Translations under genes and position numbers: made by a program | Part shown: positions 1,663 through 46,610 of the stretch, piece after piece | Numbering within the stretch: position 1 is the stretch's first letter | Layout of the letters: every line of letters starts with the position of its first letter | Source: TPA_inf: Saccharomyces | Taxonomy: Eukaryota | Direction: 5' to 3' | NCBI GenBank assembly: GCA_000146045.2 | Contig: BK006938.2 | Location: 416,001-480,000, forward strand | DNA: 64,000 nucleotides | The notes under the pieces: model-generated | Told to the model about the DNA's origin: nothing | Seen by the model: only the letters and a program-made list of their open reading frames with translations | Databases searched by the model: none

Positions 1663-4600
1663 TTAAAAAATGTCACCACAATCTTTCAAATCATGATCTC
1701 TTCTTTTAACCCAATATTTGCCCGTATATCTCCAATATTTAGCTTTTGTGATGGGATGAGTATCCCTGACGAACCATTGTGGGTGATATTCAAGGTTATT
1801 TTCCTCCCTTTTTCTGCGTGCTGCTCTTTGCTTTTCTTCAACTCTGAATTTCTCATCACCAGCTTCGTCATAACGCCCATCTTCCATTGCTCTTTGATCT
1901 GGTCTCAAACGTGTATCTGTGGGGGGTAACCATGGCAATAGATGTGGTTGTGGAGCATTCAGCGTGATAGCAAAAGGTGTTAAATTGAATGGCTCCTCAG
2001 GACGGTCGTTTGCCTTCCATATTAAAAACTTCGTTCCGTCATCCGTAGGCCCATTCCCTGCTGATGCAGCGGTTCTAGTTTTCTCCAACGAGAGATCGCC
2101 ATCTTTTACTACTTTCTTGGCAAAAATAGCTTCATTCCAGTGTCCTCCTAGGATCCACACCTTCTGTTTTTTCTTGTTGTAGACTTCGCCTGTGATTTCA
2201 TATGCTCCTGATGACCTCCATCCCCTTGCTTTGAAATACAACTTGCAATGATCACCGGTTGTGTGATTGACAACGTTCACTTCACCGTGGTTATCAACTT
2301 GTGGATTACCAATGAGAATACCTATAACAGTATTGTTGGGCTTCTTCCAAGTATACAGTTCCTCTTTTTCATTGTCATTTGGACGCAACTTAATGTGCCA
2401 TAATCCTAAGTGCTTAACATTGAAAGATCTGCCATTGAATTTAGTATCAACAAATGATTCACCCCAAAAGTCCCATCTTGGTGATTCAGTCCATGTTGCA
2501 GATATAGGAGGGTGATGTGAAACCTGCTCGGTGAAAAATCTGTACTGTTTATCTGGTCGAGAATACTCAAATGTTTCACCCAACAATGGGTTGAAGGGTT
2601 TCGCAACTCTTTTTGTAGTAGATGCGTATGAAGATGCGGTAAATGCCGCAACATATAGAGTTCTCAGTGTTGAATCTTCAAACGTTGCAGCCTGGTCTAA
2701 TAGTTCGGAATACTCCAAATCCTCTGCCACTCTTTGTAAAAGAGATGTAGGCTCATTGAAAGTAACTGGTAACGTCATTCTTGTCATATCTTTGCCCACC
2801 ATCGATTTCAGAACGGCCCAAAGACTAATCTTTGGTCTATCGTCCTTATCCATAGATAGTCTTTTTCTAATACCATCTTCATAACCAAGATAGGACCCTT
2901 CTTTGAGTAAATATTCTTCTTTTCTTTTTTGCACTGTAGTGACAGCAACTATGGTCTTTTCACCGATAACTGAAGATGCTATCTCTTTAGTTTTCTCCTT
3001 TACTTGGCTCTCTTTGTCCTCCGCTTTGAAGTTTTTCAGTGATTGATCAGTTTTTGGTTCATCTTCTGTAACTAGATTATTTTGTTTTTCAAATTTTTGG
3101 CTTGTTTTCTCAACATTTGACTCTATTTTGCTTTTTTCGTCCTGGACATACTGGCTGTCGTTATCTGTTTCATTTGGAACTGGGGGAGGAGCATGCTTGG
3201 GAGCTGCAGCGGTCGAAATTTCAGGATGAGCCTCTGTTAATTCAGTTACTTCATCCACCAATTCCGCGGCATCATAAAACTCATCAGCATCAGATGCTTC
3301 ATCTTCTTCCTTTGTAGCGCTGATAAATTTCGCAATTTGACCGAGAGTACTTGCCGTAGTATCTGATTCCTGTTCTTTGTCATTTTCTAAGGATTCCTTG
3401 TTGCCGGCAGTGGCATGTGATTCCAGCAATTTCTTGTGTAGTATCTTTTTCAAACCTCTTCTTTCTTTATCAATAGATGCTAGACGTTCGGTTTTGTTGG
3501 ACAACTCCATTTCTAATTCTTTCACAGATTGCACCCAAACGTTATTGACATCACCTTGCTTTGAAACCATATCCACTAATCTTTTGTCTCTTTTATAAGT
3601 CAAGTCCTTCAACTTACCAAAAATGGTTGATGTGTTGATGAGGCTCTTCTTTATTGTGAGCCAAACCTCAGGACTTGGCTCCTCTTGTTCAATTAGTTCA
3701 ATCAAAGAACTCAACTCTATACTGATTGCTTGTTCATACATATCAAGTTTCTCCTTATATGGCCCATACTGTGCTTTGATGTATTCTTCATCACGATCAA
3801 AATTTATTCCAAGGTCTTCCTCTTCATCATCTGAATTTGCCTCATCACCCTCGAAATTATCAATATAGTTATTATCACTCAAGGAAGCAGTAGATCCTGT
3901 TGTGGTGTTAGACTGGCTCAAATTCGCACCGTTAGGGACTTTATCTATAGGACTAGCTACACCTGAGCCACTTTGCATACTCCGGTTACTTTTCAAGGTA
4001 TTACTACTGCGGACCCTTTGCAGAGCTGAACCTGTGTGTACTCCAACGGGGGTTTTGCTACCATCCAGCCGGTTTTCAATCATTTTACTAACAAAGCGCT
4101 TGCCAGATTCAGTCAAATTATCGTTTAGTTGGATTTCGCTGGATACGACGGACAGGTTGTTGCTTGGTCTCCGATAAAGACTCACAGAGGAGGGCTGAAT
4201 AACTTCCTTGTGTAATGTGTGCTGATAGTATTGCGAAGCTTCAGGAAGAGATCCTTGTGTTTTGGAATGCGATATCAGGGCTGGAGATTTGTTCTTCAAG
4301 GCCAATGATGGTGGTACTGCCTTTTTTTTGTTTAATATCTCCTTGTCTTTGGCGAATCTAATAGCGCTTTGTATAGCATTGACCCACCTAGTCGTTTCAA
4401 TGGGATGATTGCCCTTTAAGCGCCACCTTGTTGTGCCTGTGATGCCACCTAGCAACTCGAAATTCAGTTTTTCTGAAGAATCGATGTGTAAGCGGCACGT
4501 CGAAACTTTTAAAGTACCACGAGGCCTATCAACATGCGATTGGTCTTTGTAATATGACAGATTTCCGTCGCCACTTAAAATGAACCAACGTAATTTGTAG

Positions 4601-5514
4601 CCATGGGCAAAATTTGTCCATTTCTTTAAAAACCCCTTATACGTAGGAGGCTTACTTGATGCGACATCTTCGTGAACAATAGCTTGTTCTCTCAGATTCT
4701 TTTCAAGTAGATTCTTTAACTTAATTTCCGGTGTAACGTTGTTCGACGGTTTAGCGGGTAGTTTTATATTTTTGACTAAATCCAATGGCGACCGTCCCTT
4801 CCCATCTTTAACTGTTGCTTCTGCACCATGTTTCAGCAGCCATTGACACATTTCAATGTCTTTTTTTTGCGAATATTCATACAGAAGTGTCGTTCCGGTT
4901 TCAGGATCTATGCCATTAATATCTAGTAAATTTAGGTTTCTTGGATTTTTCCAAATAGAGTCCAATTTCGAAAAGTCTCTTTTATTCATGGCTGCTCTCA
5001 AAGAATGAACTGTTTCCAAAAAATAGTCATCTCTTTTCAATTGAATCATTTGTGCTACATTCAAATCTTTGCACATGTCCAAAGGCTGCTGATGAGCTTT
5101 ATTCTTGACACAATCATTGATAGACTTCTGGCTAAGAAGGAAACTGATCACATCCGACCGAGATTGAGCAGCAGCCAAGTGCAATGGAGTATTGCCATTT
5201 TCATCCTGATAATTCAAATCTAGATGGATACCATCATCGCTTTTACTCGAACTCTTCTCATCACCTACTTGGTCCACCCAATGAGCAACAATTTCCTTGA
5301 TAAGAAGAATAGGGGCCACCTGGACAGCATAATGTAAAATTAAATTAAGAACTTGCTGTACAGATGGGTCGTCTTTAGGTTGAAATTCATTGTCCACAAG
5401 CGCCTTTAAATGTTTGAAATCCCCCTGACCCAAAACTTCCAGCAGCTTCACTTTGAGTAAAGGTTTGCTCACTTGGTTGAGATCTTCAGCAATGGACAAG
5501 TCTTCCCTAGACAT
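1663..5514 (-). CDS. OSH2: OSH2 oxysterol-binding protein homolog (ankyrin repeats, PH domain, ORD domain), 1283 aa
   Basis: 1283-aa ORF with ATG verified at 5514..5512. Ankyrin repeat signature NGNTPLHLAA; OSBP signature near the C-terminus (EQVSHHPPISA). Length matches OSH2. Confidence 0.95.
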   Translation of the reverse strand: MSREDLSIAEDLNQVSKPLLKVKLLEVLGQGDFKHLKALVDNEFQPKDDPSVQQVLNLILHYAVQVAPILLIKEIVAHWVDQVGDEKSSSKSDDGIHLDLNYQDENGNTPLHLAAAQSRSDVISFLLSQKSINDCVKNKAHQQPLDMCKDLNVAQMIQLKRDDYFLETVHSLRAAMNKRDFSKLDSIWKNPRNLNLLDINGIDPETGTTLLYEYSQKKDIEMCQWLLKHGAEATVKDGKGRSPLDLVKNIKLPAKPSNNVTPEIKLKNLLEKNLREQAIVHEDVASSKPPTYKGFLKKWTNFAHGYKLRWFILSGDGNLSYYKDQSHVDRPRGTLKVSTCRLHIDSSEKLNFELLGGITGTTRWRLKGNHPIETTRWVNAIQSAIRFAKDKEILNKKKAVPPSLALKNKSPALISHSKTQGSLPEASQYYQHTLHKEVIQPSSVSLYRRPSNNLSVVSSEIQLNDNLTESGKRFVSKMIENRLDGSKTPVGVHTGSALQRVRSSNTLKSNRSMQSGSGVASPIDKVPNGANLSQSNTTTGSTASLSDNNYIDNFEGDEANSDDEEEDLGINFDRDEEYIKAQYGPYKEKLDMYEQAISIELSSLIELIEQEEPSPEVWLTIKKSLINTSTIFGKLKDLTYKRDKRLVDMVSKQGDVNNVWVQSVKELEMELSNKTERLASIDKERRGLKKILHKKLLESHATAGNKESLENDKEQESDTTASTLGQIAKFISATKEEDEASDADEFYDAAELVDEVTELTEAHPEISTAAAPKHAPPPVPNETDNDSQYVQDEKSKIESNVEKTSQKFEKQNNLVTEDEPKTDQSLKNFKAEDKESQVKEKTKEIASSVIGEKTIVAVTTVQKRKEEYLLKEGSYLGYEDGIRKRLSMDKDDRPKISLWAVLKSMVGKDMTRMTLPVTFNEPTSLLQRVAEDLEYSELLDQAATFEDSTLRTLYVAAFTASSYASTTKRVAKPFNPLLGETFEYSRPDKQYRFFTEQVSHHPPISATWTESPRWDFWGESFVDTKFNGRSFNVKHLGLWHIKLRPNDNEKEELYTWKKPNNTVIGILIGNPQVDNHGEVNVVNHTTGDHCKLYFKARGWRSSGAYEITGEVYNKKKQKVWILGGHWNEAIFAKKVVKDGDLSLEKTRTAASAGNGPTDDGTKFLIWKANDRPEEPFNLTPFAITLNAPQPHLLPWLPPTDTRLRPDQRAMEDGRYDEAGDEKFRVEEKQRAARRKREENNLEYHPQWFVRDTHPITKAKYWRYTGKYWVKRRDHDLKDCGDIF

Positions 5515-11342: not shown

Positions 11343-12347
<1,005 letters not shown>

Positions 12348-18263: not shown

Positions 18264-18336
18264 TGCTTCCAATCGGATTTGAACCGATGATCTCCACATT
18301 ACTAGTGTGGCGCCTTACCAACTTGGCCATAGAAGC
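18264..18336 (-). tRNA. tRNA-Thr (anticodon AGU), 73 nt
   Basis: rc = GCTTCTATGGCCAAGTTGGTAAGGCGCCACACTAGTAATGTGGAGATCATCGGTTCAAATCCGATTGGAAGCA. It folds as a cloverleaf with anticodon loop CTAGTAA and GTTCAAATC T-loop (B box). Confidence 0.9.
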
Positions 18337-18449
18337 TTCTGATTTGTGTTCATTTGATTGTAAGTTAGAGTATTTCAAGCTCTAACTCAATTATGTGAAC
18401 TTTCATAAAATTGTGTTATTTTTGAGAAATATGTGAGTTGTTAGATAAT

Positions 18450-18739
18450 TGTTGGGATTCCATTGTTGCTAAAGGCTATAATATTGGTATACAGAATATA
18501 CTAGAAGTTCTCCTCGAGGATATAGGAATCCACAAAAGGGAATCGATAGTTCTACATAATGTTATTATTTTATCTTCTTTCCTTTTATGCGTTGTCATTC
18601 ATTATCCTATTACATTATCAATCCTTGCATTTCAGCTTCCATTAGATCGGATGACTGTTTCTCAATCTTTATGTCATCTTCTTACACCGCATGTGATAAT
18701 ATAATATTAAATAGATGATATTAGAGTTCAATTCCAACA
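18450..18739 (-). mobile_element. Solo Ty1/Ty2 delta LTR (about 290 bp), minus orientation, 114 bp upstream of tRNA-Thr
   Basis: Begins TGTTGGGATTCCATTGTTG...CTCGAGGATATAGGAATCC (rc of the delta 3' end) and ends ...ATTCCAACA (rc of TGTTGGAAT), with TG...CA termini. Recognised from memory of the delta sequence. Confidence 0.8.
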
Positions 18740-18789: not shown

Positions 18790-19078
18790 CGTCTCTTACA
18801 AGATAGAGGATACTACAAGAGGGAAGCAAGAATCATACATGGTAATGTTGTTTTTTCTTCCCCACATTTTTTGTTATCATTCGTTATTTATTATATTTTC
18901 AATGCTTGCATTTGCAGCTTCCATCTCATCTGATGACTGTTTCTCAATTCTTATAGTGTGTTATCATGTACGGTATTAGATGATGACATAAGGTTATGAG
19001 AAATTGTCGTCGAAGTTAAAGGAAGCTGTATTCTGTATACATAATACTATAGAATTTACAAACAGTGGAATTGCAACA
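18790..19078. mobile_element. Rearranged delta LTR remnants: a 5'-truncated minus-oriented fragment (about 18790..18955) joined head-to-head to a plus-oriented 3' delta fragment ending ...GGAATTGCAACA at 19078
   Basis: Both halves align to delta. The central segment (CAGCTTCC...GATGAC and its inverted copy) forms an imperfect palindrome around 18950. Confidence 0.65.
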
Positions 19079-20566
19079 ATTATCAAATTATTCACCTAAT
19101 AATCACCTTTAACATTCAGGGAGGTTTATTTTTGCTTCCGAAATTTTTACAGTCTACAGGGAAGAAATAAATATTTAGTTGAGAAAGTTTTGTTTATTTG
19201 TAAGTTATTAATTTGAAAAATAAATACCATAACTAGCGCAAAGCTTATAAAAGAGATGTTTGTTGAAAAATGCAGAAACCCCATATATAAAACCATGAAA
19301 TGTCACAATGGACATGATGTACATTCTTGGAGATAACATCATATTCGAAATATTCAATATGCCCAATTGGTACCTGTTCTCCATACCCCATTATATGATA
19401 CAAATGATCTGCCCCTATTCTAACACTGTGCTAGCAACATAGCAATTATACTAAATTTTTTCAGTCACTATGCAATACATGTAATCTCTCAACTACCAAG
19501 CAGTCATTATTCTATTAATATATATTTGTGCTTGGAAGTATTGTTTCACTTCTCAGAGGCCTTTCTTGACATGTTATAGTTTTTTAGGTACCTTCTAATC
19601 CTGTAAATTTATACAAAAATTGGTATATAATGGCTACCTCCGGAAATTTTAACAACTTTTGGGTCACACTATTACTGTGTATACTTCCTTTAGAGATCTC
19701 AAGCATTACTGAAAGATAACCTGAGGAAAAACATAGCGCGTCTACGGATGTGTAATACTCGCTGGATTTCCTGGTAAAAACTACTGTACATTTATCAGCT
19801 GCCTCTGCCAATGCTATTGAGAACCGTAGGTTCATTAGAATTACTTCATTCAACGGAAAACGTCACTATACCTGCCGCTTGTGTGTCGCGTCAGTAACGC
19901 CTTGACAGAAAAAGAAAGAAAAGAATATGACCGACCGATCGATGTATTATTATTATTGAACTGATTATAAAAAATTGGAACGTCGTAGAATCAGAAATCA
20001 TAAGACAATGGCCAACTATGCCAAATCACACATCAATATTTAACCGAGATAGCAAAAGAAAATAAATTTCGATTATTTTTAAAATGTAACTGACAGTTTT
20101 TGGCACTTGTGGACTTCCTCTTTCCGGCAGATAGCAAAACCAACGGTAGAATGGCCCCGAAATTTAAATTTTATTTCATTGTGTGCTTGAGCGTGGCCTT
20201 TTTTTTTTTTTTTTTACATATCACAAACAATTCACACATTACCACACATACCATAAGCTAACGTATGCGGTGCAAAGTTCACTATTAGGCGCTTAAAGGC
20301 TTGGAACGAAATGACTTCTGGCTTTTGTTTCCTATACACATTCTTAGCAAAACTTTTGGTGTTGTAACAAGCAATGAGATAGAGAAAGAAATATATCCAT
20401 CAATGGAAGAAATAGGCAGACGTCGGTAATTTTATTCTATTGAAAATATGCAAAAGTGACAGTATAAATTGAAGTAACTAATTTTACATCTAGTAAGCTG
20501 CTGTTGAAGAATTGAATAGTATCGCAGTATTTATTTTGTATACCCTTAGAATACACATACTTGGTG

Positions 20567-20827: not shown

Positions 20828-21527
20828 GAAAGTGCTTGAAATATTTTTCTTGGATTATGGAAGTATCAAGAACGATATTATTTCAATAATGTGATGGTTT
20901 ATATCTTTGCATACAATAGATTTTGTGATACTTTTTTTATGTAATGGTCCCGTAACCCCGTCGCTCTTTCCCTTTTAATTTTGCCCGATCCACTTTCTAT
21001 GCCGGTAGTTTAGCCGCCAAGTGCTATTTTCAAACGAATCAATAGTAGCGGCTGCAACTTTGAAAAAGAAAGAAACAAAATTATGCGCTAGTTTTCCATT
21101 TCTTGTATTCTTTTTTCTTTTGCGGTGGTAATTACGGGAATTTAGTGATGTTGGAACGAGAGTAATTAATAGTGACATGAGTTGCTATGGTAACAATCTA
21201 ATGCTTACACCGTATATTAATGTACACCTCGTATACGTTTAAGTGTGATTGCACCTATTGCAGAAGGAATGTTAAACGAGAAGCTCAGACAATACTGAAG
21301 CTGTGCTAAAGATCTATTAATTGAACATGATATGGTAGGTACATATATGAGGAATATGAGTCGTCACATCAATGTATAGTAACTACCGGAATCACTATTA
21401 TATTGGTCATGATTAATATGACCAATCGGCGTGTGTTTTATATACCTCTCTTATTTAGTATAAGAAGATCAATACTTATTTCTTCATTAATACTATTTTT
21501 TACCTCTAACTATCAACAAGTGATAAT

Positions 21528-21699
21528 TGTTGGAATTCCATTGTTAATAAAGGCAATAATATTATGTATACAGAATACAGCTTCCTCTAACTTCTATGAC
21601 AGTTTCTCATACCTTATGTCATCATCTAACATTGTACATTATAATATACTCGTAGTAAGACTACTAGTTGAGAGAGAATAGTTGATTTTTATTCTAACA
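21528..21699 (-). mobile_element. Internally deleted solo delta LTR (about 172 bp), 72 bp upstream of tRNA-Ser
   Basis: Starts TGTTGGAATTCCATTGTTAATAAAGGCAATAATATTATGTATACAGAATA and ends GTTGATTTTTATTCTAACA, matching both delta termini in minus orientation. Confidence 0.7.
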
Positions 21700-21771: not shown

Positions 21772-21853
21772 GGCAACTTGGCCGAGTGGTTAAGGCGAAA
21801 GATTAGAAATCTTTTGGGCTTTGCCCGCGCAGGTTCGAGTCCTGCAGTTGTCG
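21772..21853 (+). tRNA. tRNA-Ser (anticodon AGA), 82 nt with long variable arm
   Basis: GGCAACTTGGCCGAGTGGTTAAGGCGAAAGATTAGAAATCTTTTGGGCTTTGCCCGCGCAGGTTCGAGTCCTGCAGTTGTCG. A box TGGCCGAGTGG, B box GGTTCGAGTCC, then a poly-T terminator (TCATTTTTAT) just downstream. Confidence 0.9.
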
Positions 21854-31983: not shown

Positions 31984-33276
31984 ATGGTAGATAGTAATGA
32001 TGATCAACCGGAACGCCATGCATTACTTCATAATGACATCCAAACATCAAATAACAGTAGGCCATCACTGGTCCAAAAAAAGTACTTACCTACCCCACAA
32101 GATACAAGAAAGTCTAGAGCATCGTATACAGGAAGTGCCATGATCAACCCGACAAGTAAACAAAGTCGTACAGGATCGGGCGCTCAAAGAACATCACGCA
32201 CAGCACAGAAACTAAAACTTTTGCCAGAAGAACCATTCCAAAGAGATAGCGAAAGACTTACTGATTTAAAGAATCAGGAAGTATATTCTCAGGTAAACAG
32301 GATAAAAGATAAGCCTGCTAGAAGGGATGCTGAAAAGTTGGGAAAAGCTCACAGACATTTACTCCCCAGGTCAACTGCATATTGTACTGCTAGCAGTTAC
32401 AATATGAAAGAGCTGGTAAGGTGGTTAAAGGACTGTCGAAAGCTACATCATACTCATCCTAAATTGTTTGATGAATGCTTGTACACTCCCTTCATTTACA
32501 ACGATTGGAGGGGCGACAAAAGATTTGAGGATGAAGATGTGATTAGGTTGGATGATGAGGGCGGTGAAATTATTGTTAGTGACAAGCACCCAGATCTGTT
32601 TATCTTTGAATATGGTGTTGTCGTTATGTGGGGGTTTACTGAAAGAGAAGAAAAAGCTTTCTTAAACGATATAGAAAAGTTCGAAAAAGAAAAATTGGCG
32701 GAAGAAGATATTCAAGTTGAAGAGTTCAATTATTATGTCACAAAAAGTTATCAACCAAGAATATATAACGATTTTATTACCTTGAGAGATGGTTCAAATT
32801 ACATGGTAAAACTCTCTATCTCTCATGCAATTGCTCAAAGCGTAAAAATTTCACTTTTCGAAGAGCTTGTGGATAATACTATTGAAGATACTCAGGATAT
32901 ACCACAAGAAATTGCATACAGCGGTAAAGTTTCTATGAGCAAAGAAGATATAATGAAAAGTATAGGGGAGCTATTCATTTTGAGGATAAATATCAATCTA
33001 CATGGATCAGTTTTAGACTCTCCAGAAATTATGTGGTCAGAACCACAGTTAGAACCCATATACCAAGCAACAAGAGGTTACTTAGAGATCAATCAGCGCG
33101 TTTCACTTTTAAATCAAAGACTCGAGGTCATTTCAGATCTTCTTCAAATGTTGAAGGAACAGCTGGGCCATTCTCATGAAGAATATCTTGAATTTATTGT
33201 CATATTACTAGTTGGTGTGGAAGTCCTAATATCGGTGATCAATATAGTGGTTGACATGCTGGCTAGTCAACATTGA
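31984..33276 (+). CDS. RMD1: RMD1 DUF155-family protein required for meiotic nuclear division, 430 aa
   Basis: Length and sequence match from memory. C-terminal TM helix. Confidence 0.8.
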   Translation: MVDSNDDQPERHALLHNDIQTSNNSRPSLVQKKYLPTPQDTRKSRASYTGSAMINPTSKQSRTGSGAQRTSRTAQKLKLLPEEPFQRDSERLTDLKNQEVYSQVNRIKDKPARRDAEKLGKAHRHLLPRSTAYCTASSYNMKELVRWLKDCRKLHHTHPKLFDECLYTPFIYNDWRGDKRFEDEDVIRLDDEGGEIIVSDKHPDLFIFEYGVVVMWGFTEREEKAFLNDIEKFEKEKLAEEDIQVEEFNYYVTKSYQPRIYNDFITLRDGSNYMVKLSISHAIAQSVKISLFEELVDNTIEDTQDIPQEIAYSGKVSMSKEDIMKSIGELFILRININLHGSVLDSPEIMWSEPQLEPIYQATRGYLEINQRVSLLNQRLEVISDLLQMLKEQLGHSHEEYLEFIVILLVGVEVLISVINIVVDMLASQH

Positions 33277-33710
33277 GCCTTTTGATCATGCAAATATATT
33301 ACGGTATTTTACAATCAAATATCAAACTTAACTATTGACTTTATAACTTATTTAGGTGGTAACATTCTTATAAAAAAGAAAAAAATTACTGCAAAACAGT
33401 ACTAGCTTTTAACTTGTATCCTAGGTTATCTATGCTGTCTCACCATAGAGAATATTACCTATTTCAGAATGTATGTCCATGATTCGCCGGGTAAATACAT
33501 ATAATACACAAATCTGGCTTAATAAAGTCTATAATATATCTCATAAAGAAGTGCTAAATTGGCTAGTGCTATATATTTTTAAGAAAATTTCTTTTGACTA
33601 AGTCCATATCGACTTTGTAAAAGTTCACATTAGCATACATATATTACACGAGCCAGAAATAGTAACTTTTGCCTAAATCACAAATTGCAAAATTTAATTG
33701 CTTGCAAAAG

Positions 33711-33821
33711 GTCACATGCTTATAATCAACTTTTTTAAAAATTTAAAATACTTTTTTATTTTTTATTTTTAAACATAAATGAAATAATTTATTTATTGTT
33801 TATGATTACCGAAACATAAAA
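33711..33821. other. CEN4: CEN4 point centromere: CDEI GTCACATG (33711..33718), CDEII 78 bp at about 92% A+T (33719..33796), CDEIII TGTTTATGATTACCGAAACATAAAA (33797..33821)
   Basis: CDEI matches RTCACRTG. CDEII length and A+T content are typical. CDEIII carries the invariant CCG flanked by the TGTTTATG...GAAA...AAAA consensus. Lies between RMD1 (YDL001W) and NTH1 (YDR001C), exactly where CEN4 maps. Confidence 0.95.
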
Positions 33822-34188
33822 CCTGCTCAAGAAAAAGAAACTGTTTTGTCCTTGGAAAAAAAGCACTACCTAGGAGCGGCCAAAATGCCGAGGCTTTCAT
33901 AGCTTAAACTCTTTACAGAAAATAGGCATTATAGATCAGTTCGAGTTTTCTTATTCTTCCTTCCGGTTTTATCGTCACAGTTTTACAGTAAATAAGTATC
34001 ACCTCTTAGAGTTAACCTATACTAAAATTTATGCCAGTTAACTATGAGATAAGCAAGTATCATCTCATTTCATTACCTGAAGTCGAGTAAACAGAAAATC
34101 CAATTGTTGATGAACCTCAATGACTTAGAACTATCTATCGGCAGATCATATAAAGAGGATTTAGGTACCTAGAGGACTGTACCTGGAG

Positions 34189-46516: not shown

Positions 46517-46610
46517 GTTATTACTGAGTAGTATTTATTTAAGTATTGTTTGTGCACTTGCCTGCAGGCCTTTTGAAAAGCAAGCATAAAAGATCTAAAC
46601 ATAAAATCTG
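46490..46610. other. ARS1: ARS1 replication origin: ACS TTTTATGTTTA on the minus strand (plus 46596..46606) abutting a BglII site AGATCT (46591..46596); B elements extend toward and into the TRP1 3' end
   Basis: ACS is an 11/11 match to WTTTAYRTTTW. The arrangement AGATCTAAACATAAAATCTGTAAAATAACAAG directly 3' of TRP1 is the classical TRP1-ARS1 fragment. The B3 (Abf1) region corresponds to ...AATTTCGTCAAAAATGCTAAGAAATAG at the TRP1 stop. Confidence 0.9.

Follow-up and report, generated by a model that had tools for sequence, protein, structure and literature searches.

CEN4 in a 64-kb window of Saccharomyces cerevisiae chromosome IV, and its short form among strains

Introduction

The 64-kb stretch of DNA that we analysed, which we call the window, contains a 111-bp element that looks like a yeast point centromere. 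Is it the centromere of chromosome IV (CEN4), could something else account for it, and how does this form of the element compare with its counterparts in other strains and species? The cloning, sequencing, and dissection of CEN4 date back decades, and yeast centromeric vectors and minichromosomes routinely carry it. [quoted passage not shown] CEN4 is an already known and fully characterised feature. The element is ordinary and brings no new biology.

Results

A tripartite element

The coordinates of the element, its parts, and its surroundings are given in Table 1. The original prediction was of a tripartite CDEI-CDEII-CDEIII element at 33711-33821, with a CDEII of 78 bp and about 92% A+T and with the essential CCG in CDEIII. 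Both a direct reading of the sequence and a script agree with this base for base: the element is 111 bp in total, it reads from CDEI to CDEIII on the plus strand, the measured CDEII is 78 bp with 92.3% A+T, and the CCG is present at 33809-33811.

CDEI fits the RTCACRTG consensus (as in PMC10810202). Within CDEII, 72 of the 78 bases are A or T, with G or C at 33719, 33727, 33730, 33751, 33774, and 33781. CDEII has six A or T runs of at least 4 bases and five homopolymer runs of at least 5; for the latter, 1.7 are expected from its own composition (p ~0.012). CDEIII carries TACCGAA at 33807-33813, which satisfies (T/A)(T/A)CCGAA, and is partially dyad-symmetric (8 of 12 pairs). To the right of CDEIII, AAAAA at 33832-33836 gives a T run on the minus strand. 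No open reading frame of more than 35 amino acids overlaps the element. A search of Rfam found nothing at the CEN4 locus and, in the window as a whole, yielded only two tRNA genes. In short, the element has the three parts of a point centromere in fixed order, orientation, and spacing; it is intergenic; and it is present in a single copy within the 64-kb window.

Table 1. CEN4 and other features of the window (positions are those of the window)
Feature	Position	Strand	Description
CDEI	33711-33718	+	GTCACATG, read directly; from the literature, putative site of a Cbf1 bHLH-zipper dimer
CDEII	33719-33796	+	78 bp, 92.3% A+T; per the literature, DNA of the single Cse4 (CENP-A) nucleosome
CDEIII	33797-33821	+	TGTTTATGATTACCGAAACATAAAA, read directly; CBF3 site per the literature
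TGT of CDEIII	33797-33799	+	literature feature mapped on the window
Central conserved G of CDEIII	33804	+	literature feature mapped on the window
Essential CCG of CDEIII	33809-33811	+	literature feature mapped on the window
Right-hand flank, ~30 bp	33822-33851	+	probable kinetochore footprint (Ndc10, second CCAN contact region), from the literature; no defined sequence element
RMD1	31984-33276	+	exact match to NP_010283.3, Rmd1p of S288C; stop codon 435 bp from CDEI
NTH1	34220-36475	-	exact match to S288C alpha,alpha-trehalase NTH1; stop codon 399 bp from CDEIII
ARS1 core	46596-46606	-	TTTTATGTTTA; just downstream of TRP1, adjoining the BglII site given for ARS1 in PMC3364953
tRNA-Thr(AGU)	18264-18336	-	beside delta-LTR-like remnants
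tRNA-Ser(AGA)	21772-21853	+	beside delta-LTR-like remnants
Delta-LTR-like remnants	18423-18703, 18961-19084, 21522-21699		84-93% identical to the insertion in assembly L022

The location and the published reagents for CEN4

We looked up 19 proteins from the window by exact sequence (OSH2, CDC7, SLX5, APC11, MCD1, NHP10, RMD1, NTH1, YRB1, RCR2, RAD57, SOK1, TRP1, GAL3, SNQ2, PSF1, RAD61, HED1, and DAD1). All of them are S. cerevisiae entries, and most have S288C reference names. Two convergent genes, RMD1 (plus strand) and NTH1 (minus strand), flank the element with their 3' ends. We take RMD1 to be YDL001W, with which the left arm ends, and NTH1 to be YDR001C, with which the right arm begins. 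The sources also name YDL003W (MCD1) to the left of the element and YDR005C and YDR011W to its right. Because YDL names are on the left and YDR names are on the right, the switch from the left arm to the right arm of chromosome D (IV) is within this interval.

Seven oligonucleotides that were published for CEN4, namely an LNA probe for CDEI/II and three pairs of primers (PMC3364953), all map uniquely to the site. Five of the seven match exactly (the probe and four primers), and the other two primers mismatch at their 5'-terminal base only. The probe spans 33711-33733, and 33797-33816 is the site of the CDEIII primer TGTTTATGATTACCGAAACA. The same study put BglII sites 50 bp outside the boundaries of CEN4, and the primers for its 214-bp fragment start at 33661 and 33872, which is exactly 50 bp outside 33711 and 33821. 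[quoted passage not shown] These published data speak against a site that lacks Cse4 and against a fragment that fails to stabilise an ARS plasmid. When we searched the text of the literature for the full 25-bp CDEIII or for the first 20 bp of CEN4, there was no match; an 18-mer matches PMC3364953.

The length and the coordinate point the same way. CEN4 is 111 bp, the shortest of the 16 centromeres, and the others are 117-120 bp (PMC10381965). The centromeres of S288c have been described as 111-120 bp long, with RTCACRTG as CDEI, a CDEII of 78-87 bp, and an absolutely conserved (T/A)(T/A)CCGAA (PMC10810202); the element agrees with each of these figures. A bioRxiv preprint gives "CEN IV, 449711", and as 33711 + 416,000 = 449711, the window is chrIV:416,001-480,000.

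A public assembly of S. cerevisiae (L001) has the identical 111-bp sequence in the same place. For 33734-33770, within CDEII, the identity comes only from this match and not from a CEN4-labelled sequence. We detected no difference from CEN4 of S288C, which shares the 111-bp length, the start coordinate, the RMD1 and NTH1 flanks, and the boundaries of CDEI, CDEII, and CDEIII; the positions that lack an oligonucleotide were compared only with L001, to which they are identical. So the claim that the window is the pericentromere of chromosome IV and that the element is CEN4 holds up on its flanking genes, the unique mapping of the CEN4 oligonucleotides, its length of 111 bp, and its coordinate of 449711.

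CEN4 in sister species and other point centromeres

We reached the corresponding loci via RMD1 and via orthologues of the neighbouring gene YRB1, in five assemblies of S. cerevisiae and in six other species of Saccharomyces. S. paradoxus, S. mikatae, S. kudriavzevii, S. arboricola, S. uvarum, and S. eubayanus all have the order RMD1-CEN-NTH1, with CDEI-CDEII-CDEIII at the syntenic site. A strict pattern with a cut-off of >85% A+T misses the orthologues in S. uvarum and S. eubayanus, and a relaxed pattern finds both. The CDEII of S. uvarum (L008, 2455-2573) is 85% A+T. In S. eubayanus (L009, 2424-2542), CDEII is only 81% A+T, and GTCAGCTG is found where CDEI is expected. We also noticed that the interval between RMD1 and NTH1 is about 320-360 bp longer in these two species than in S. 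cerevisiae.

Across the six species, CDEII is 85-87 bp long and 81-92% A+T. Its identity to the CDEII of the window in global alignments is 0.61-0.66, which is no better than the baseline from shuffled sequences (0.69 +/- 0.03). CDEI is 75-100% identical to that of the window, and it is RTCACATG in five of the six species. Within CDEIII, G33798, G33804, CCG33809-11, and AA33812-13 are near-invariant across the seven species. At position 12 of CDEIII, the sister species have the T of the general consensus (TTTCCGAA, in all six of L007-L012), whereas S. cerevisiae has A (window 33808; TTACCGAA, an A that is common to all 22 of the S. cerevisiae loci that we describe below). Thus the orthologues share the syntenic position, the tripartite layout, the length class of CDEII, and the CCGAA core, but the sequence of CDEII cannot be aligned. 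Point centromeres have been described as conserved binding sites with a spacer that is constrained only in its length and composition (PMC3155921). What is conserved here matches this expected signature of a point centromere: CDEI and CDEIII are kept, and CDEII keeps only its length and its A+T richness.

The other 15 centromeres of S. cerevisiae (for example CEN3 and CEN6) share the order and orientation of CDEI-CDEII-CDEIII, the RTCACRTG motif, an A+T-rich CDEII, and (T/A)(T/A)CCGAA, and they are presumably bound by the same proteins as CEN4. They differ in length (117-120 bp for the other S288C centromeres, 111 bp for CEN4), and position 12 of CDEIII is A in CEN4 as compared to T in the textbook consensus. 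The pairwise identity among the centromeres is only 51-70%, and it is highest between CEN1 and CEN4 (PMC10810202). More distantly, the proto-point centromeres of the Saccharomycodales (Hanseniaspora and Saccharomycodes) also place one Cse4 nucleosome on an A+T-rich CDEII and are defined genetically by short flanking motifs, but they are without the rigid arrangement of CDEI, CDEII, and CDEIII and without a uniform length of CDEII (PMC13017519). CEN4 has both the rigid arrangement and the uniform length, so it is a canonical point centromere.

Alternative explanations

Could A+T-rich DNA in the 3' region common to two convergent genes have acquired an E-box and a CCGAA by luck? Intergenic and terminator DNA in yeast is A+T-rich, the flanks of CEN4 are 61-71% A+T, and there are 6 RTCACRTG sites and 63 CCGAA sites across the window. 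The combination of these features is much harder to obtain. The pattern RTCACRTG-N76-90-N11-CCGAA has one match in the 64-kb window, counting both strands, and TCACRTG-N90-98-CCGAAA has one match as compared to 0.05 expected from shuffles that preserve dinucleotides. The textbook 25-bp consensus of CDEIII, TGTTTWTGNTTTCCGAAANNNAAAA, has one match in the window with 1 mismatch (24 of 25 positions fit) and is expected 0 times by chance: 0 of 100 shuffles match even at 3 mismatches. The single departure is A instead of T at 33808, the position 12 at which S. cerevisiae differs from its sister species. CDEII is the most A+T-rich 78 bp in the 64 kb, and every 78-bp segment with at least 92.3% A+T starts at 33719-33732. 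Furthermore, six species share all three elements at the syntenic site, with order and spacing unchanged, despite the complete turnover of CDEII, and the published reagents for CEN4 map to the site. We find it practically inconceivable that luck explains the element.

Two other readings would give the site a different function. CDEI is a motif that Cbf1 binds at promoters, and its recognition is E-box-like and identical to that by Myc-Max (PMC10381965), which raises the question of whether the site is a Cbf1-dependent transcriptional regulatory site, as in the promoters of MET genes, and not a centromere. This would leave the constraint on the length of CDEII unexplained, as well as the conserved CBF3 site 78-87 bp away. 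Also, because RMD1 and NTH1 converge, the interval consists of two 3' ends and has no promoter. We consider a regulatory site to be extremely improbable. As for an origin of replication whose ARS consensus sequence (ACS) lies inside the A+T-rich block, there is indeed an exact ACS (ATTTATGTTTA) at 33770-33780 on the minus strand, within CDEII. By composition, we estimate that an exact ACS would arise about 0.16 times per stretch like CDEII; the window has 13 exact matches, including the ARS1 core, as compared to 3.3 expected. Among the S. cerevisiae loci, only the window and L001, L023, and L028 have the ACS, and none of the 19 loci with a 119-bp allele does, so its presence in CDEII is probably fortuitous. 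S. kudriavzevii is the only sister species with a match, which lies elsewhere and on the opposite strand. CEN4 minichromosomes carry a separate origin, ARS1 (PMC3364953). Because the ACS is not conserved, we reject the idea that the main role of the site is as an origin, which seems very unlikely. The site is best explained as the centromere CEN4.

The short allele among strains of S. cerevisiae

To sample further strains, we used variant RMD1 and NTH1 proteins, which led to 22 readable S. cerevisiae loci from 21 assemblies (L001, L003-L005, and L013-L030). This is not a random sample of strains, as protein variants guided the choice and places that were nearly identical were merged. CDEII is 86 bp in 19 of the loci, 85 bp in two, and 78 bp in just one, which is L001, where it is identical to the window. 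Put another way, the 111-bp form of CEN4 is found in 1 of the 21 other assemblies that we sampled, and the rest have 118-119 bp. Relative to the longer alleles, the CDEII of the window has one deletion of about 7 bp and a 1-bp indel, both in A/T tracts, and 2-4 substitutions (87-88% identity). The short form of CDEII is probably derived, because the sister species have 85-87 bp.

There are at least 12 distinct haplotypes of CEN4 among the 22 loci. CDEI is invariant in all 22, and CDEIII is identical in 21; the exception, L003, has T-to-C at position 21, where the consensus varies. That CEN4 is highly polymorphic was already documented in Figure 1 of PMC3155921, whose alignment has an 87-bp CDEII, so we view the variation in length as context and not as a discovery.

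In one more assembly, L002 (GCA_014132395.1), CDEIII and CDEII seemed to have been lost at about 4740-4830. A run of Ns covers most of CEN4 there (189 Ns in the locus), so this is an artefact of assembly or masking.

Separately, L022 (GCA_000977295.3) has a 332-bp insertion at about 3050-3381, which is equivalent to 33528-33532 of the window, or about 180 bp to the left of CDEI. On the reverse complement, the insertion starts with TGTTGGAATA and ends with TTCTCA, and it is flanked by a 5-bp duplication of TCTAT. We take these ends and the duplication to be the signature of a solo delta LTR of Ty1 or Ty2. The CEN4 beside the insertion is intact, at 119 bp.

The surroundings of CEN4

The original prediction listed CDC7, MCD1, RAD61, PSF1, APC11, DAD1, SLX5, RAD57, and HED1, and also ARS1, as being within 30 kb of the centromere, and it viewed their clustering as probably coincidental. 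All nine genes do lie within 30 kb of the element and encode exact S. cerevisiae proteins, and the core of ARS1 is also inside this distance (Table 1). These nine genes for chromosome biology are among roughly 33-37 genes, from 8209 to 62758 of the window. By a rough binomial calculation for a category that was defined post hoc, P ranges from 0.0009 to 0.31 as the assumed background rate goes from 8% to 20%. The clustering of segregation and replication genes near CEN4 may well be coincidental, which is a reasonable view.

RTCACRTG motifs other than CDEI are located at 1088 (plus strand), 1097 (minus strand), 3421, 18697, and 23441. None of them has a partner that resembles CDEII or CDEIII. 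The sites at 1088 and 1097 could be overlapping or adjacent sites of the E-box type.

We made a few other observations about the window. The delta-LTR-like remnants in Table 1 sit in an ORF-poor stretch of 4 kb between APC11 and the next large ORF. From 11376 to 11599, a tandem repeat with periods of 12 and 30 nucleotides encodes a stretch that is rich in glycine and arginine, at the start of an ORF of 327 amino acids (11364-12347), which is presumably NOP1 (fibrillarin). The ORF at 40836-41990 on the minus strand has 238 amino acids from its first ATG, as compared to 395 amino acids for database members that are named Maf1p; this is consistent with a gene that is split by an intron and is hidden in a bacterial-style list of ORFs. 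Finally, in the clusters at 90% for SOK1 and for RAD57/RCR2, neighbouring genes occur together, and the probable cause is that some assemblies contain fused gene models.

Discussion

What would CEN4 do with these three parts? The protein binding and the segregation function that we ascribe to the element come from the literature on yeast centromeres. Cbf1 recognises the CAC(A/G)TG of CDEI as Myc-Max does an E-box, and the Gal4-like Zn2Cys6 domain of one Cep3 subunit contacts the CCG of CDEIII (PMC10381965). Another structural description places the Cep3 domains on a TGT/CCG pseudo-palindrome, Ctf13-Skp1 on the central conserved G, and Ndc10 on a run of thymines that is 21-30 bp downstream of the CCG (PMC6077249); in the window, the T run on the minus strand at 33832-33836 would correspond to these thymines. 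No substitution is tolerated in the CCG triplet, and in no other part of the yeast centromere is the requirement this strict (PMC6077249). The Cse4 nucleosome is wrapped by about 90 bp and is flanked by two CCAN modules that are bridged by CBF3, and the total footprint is about 150 bp, which reaches about 30 bp to the right (3') of CDEIII (PMC10381965).

If CEN4 in the window works this way, then a Cbf1 dimer would read the E-box-like CDEI, and CBF3 (a Cep3 dimer, Ctf13-Skp1, and an Ndc10 dimer) would read CDEIII, with one Zn2Cys6 domain of Cep3 on the essential CCG and the second, as modelled, on the TGT half-site. CBF3 and the chaperone Scm3 would direct the deposition of a single Cse4 (CENP-A) nucleosome on the A+T-rich CDEII. 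On the unwrapped ends of the DNA, two CCAN modules with CBF3 as the bridge between them would form and recruit the outer kinetochore, which would capture one spindle microtubule.

CEN4 is the only cis-acting segregation element in the window. It also anchors the window at chrIV:416,001-480,000, which helps to annotate the rest.

The aspect of the element that stands out among strains is its length. Between CDEI and CDEIII, the 111-bp form is 7-8 bp shorter, or about three-quarters of a helical turn, than the 118-119 bp form of most strains, and the sister species have 118-120 bp. It might be that the CEN4 of the reference is a derived deletion allele that is restricted to a lineage and that measurably alters the geometry of the kinetochore or the fidelity with which chromosome IV is segregated. 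We think that this is unlikely. If it were true, then the statement that "CEN4 is substantially shorter," as it appears in structural discussion, would describe a variant of the laboratory lineage and not something inherent to the chromosome. Published alignments of populations already show the polymorphism; only a functional consequence would be new. With or without such a consequence, the comparison shows that the phrase "CEN4 is substantially shorter" applies to the reference lineage rather than to the species. Although the length of the reference CEN4 is often cited as the minimum for yeast centromeres, it seems to be atypical among strains of S. cerevisiae.
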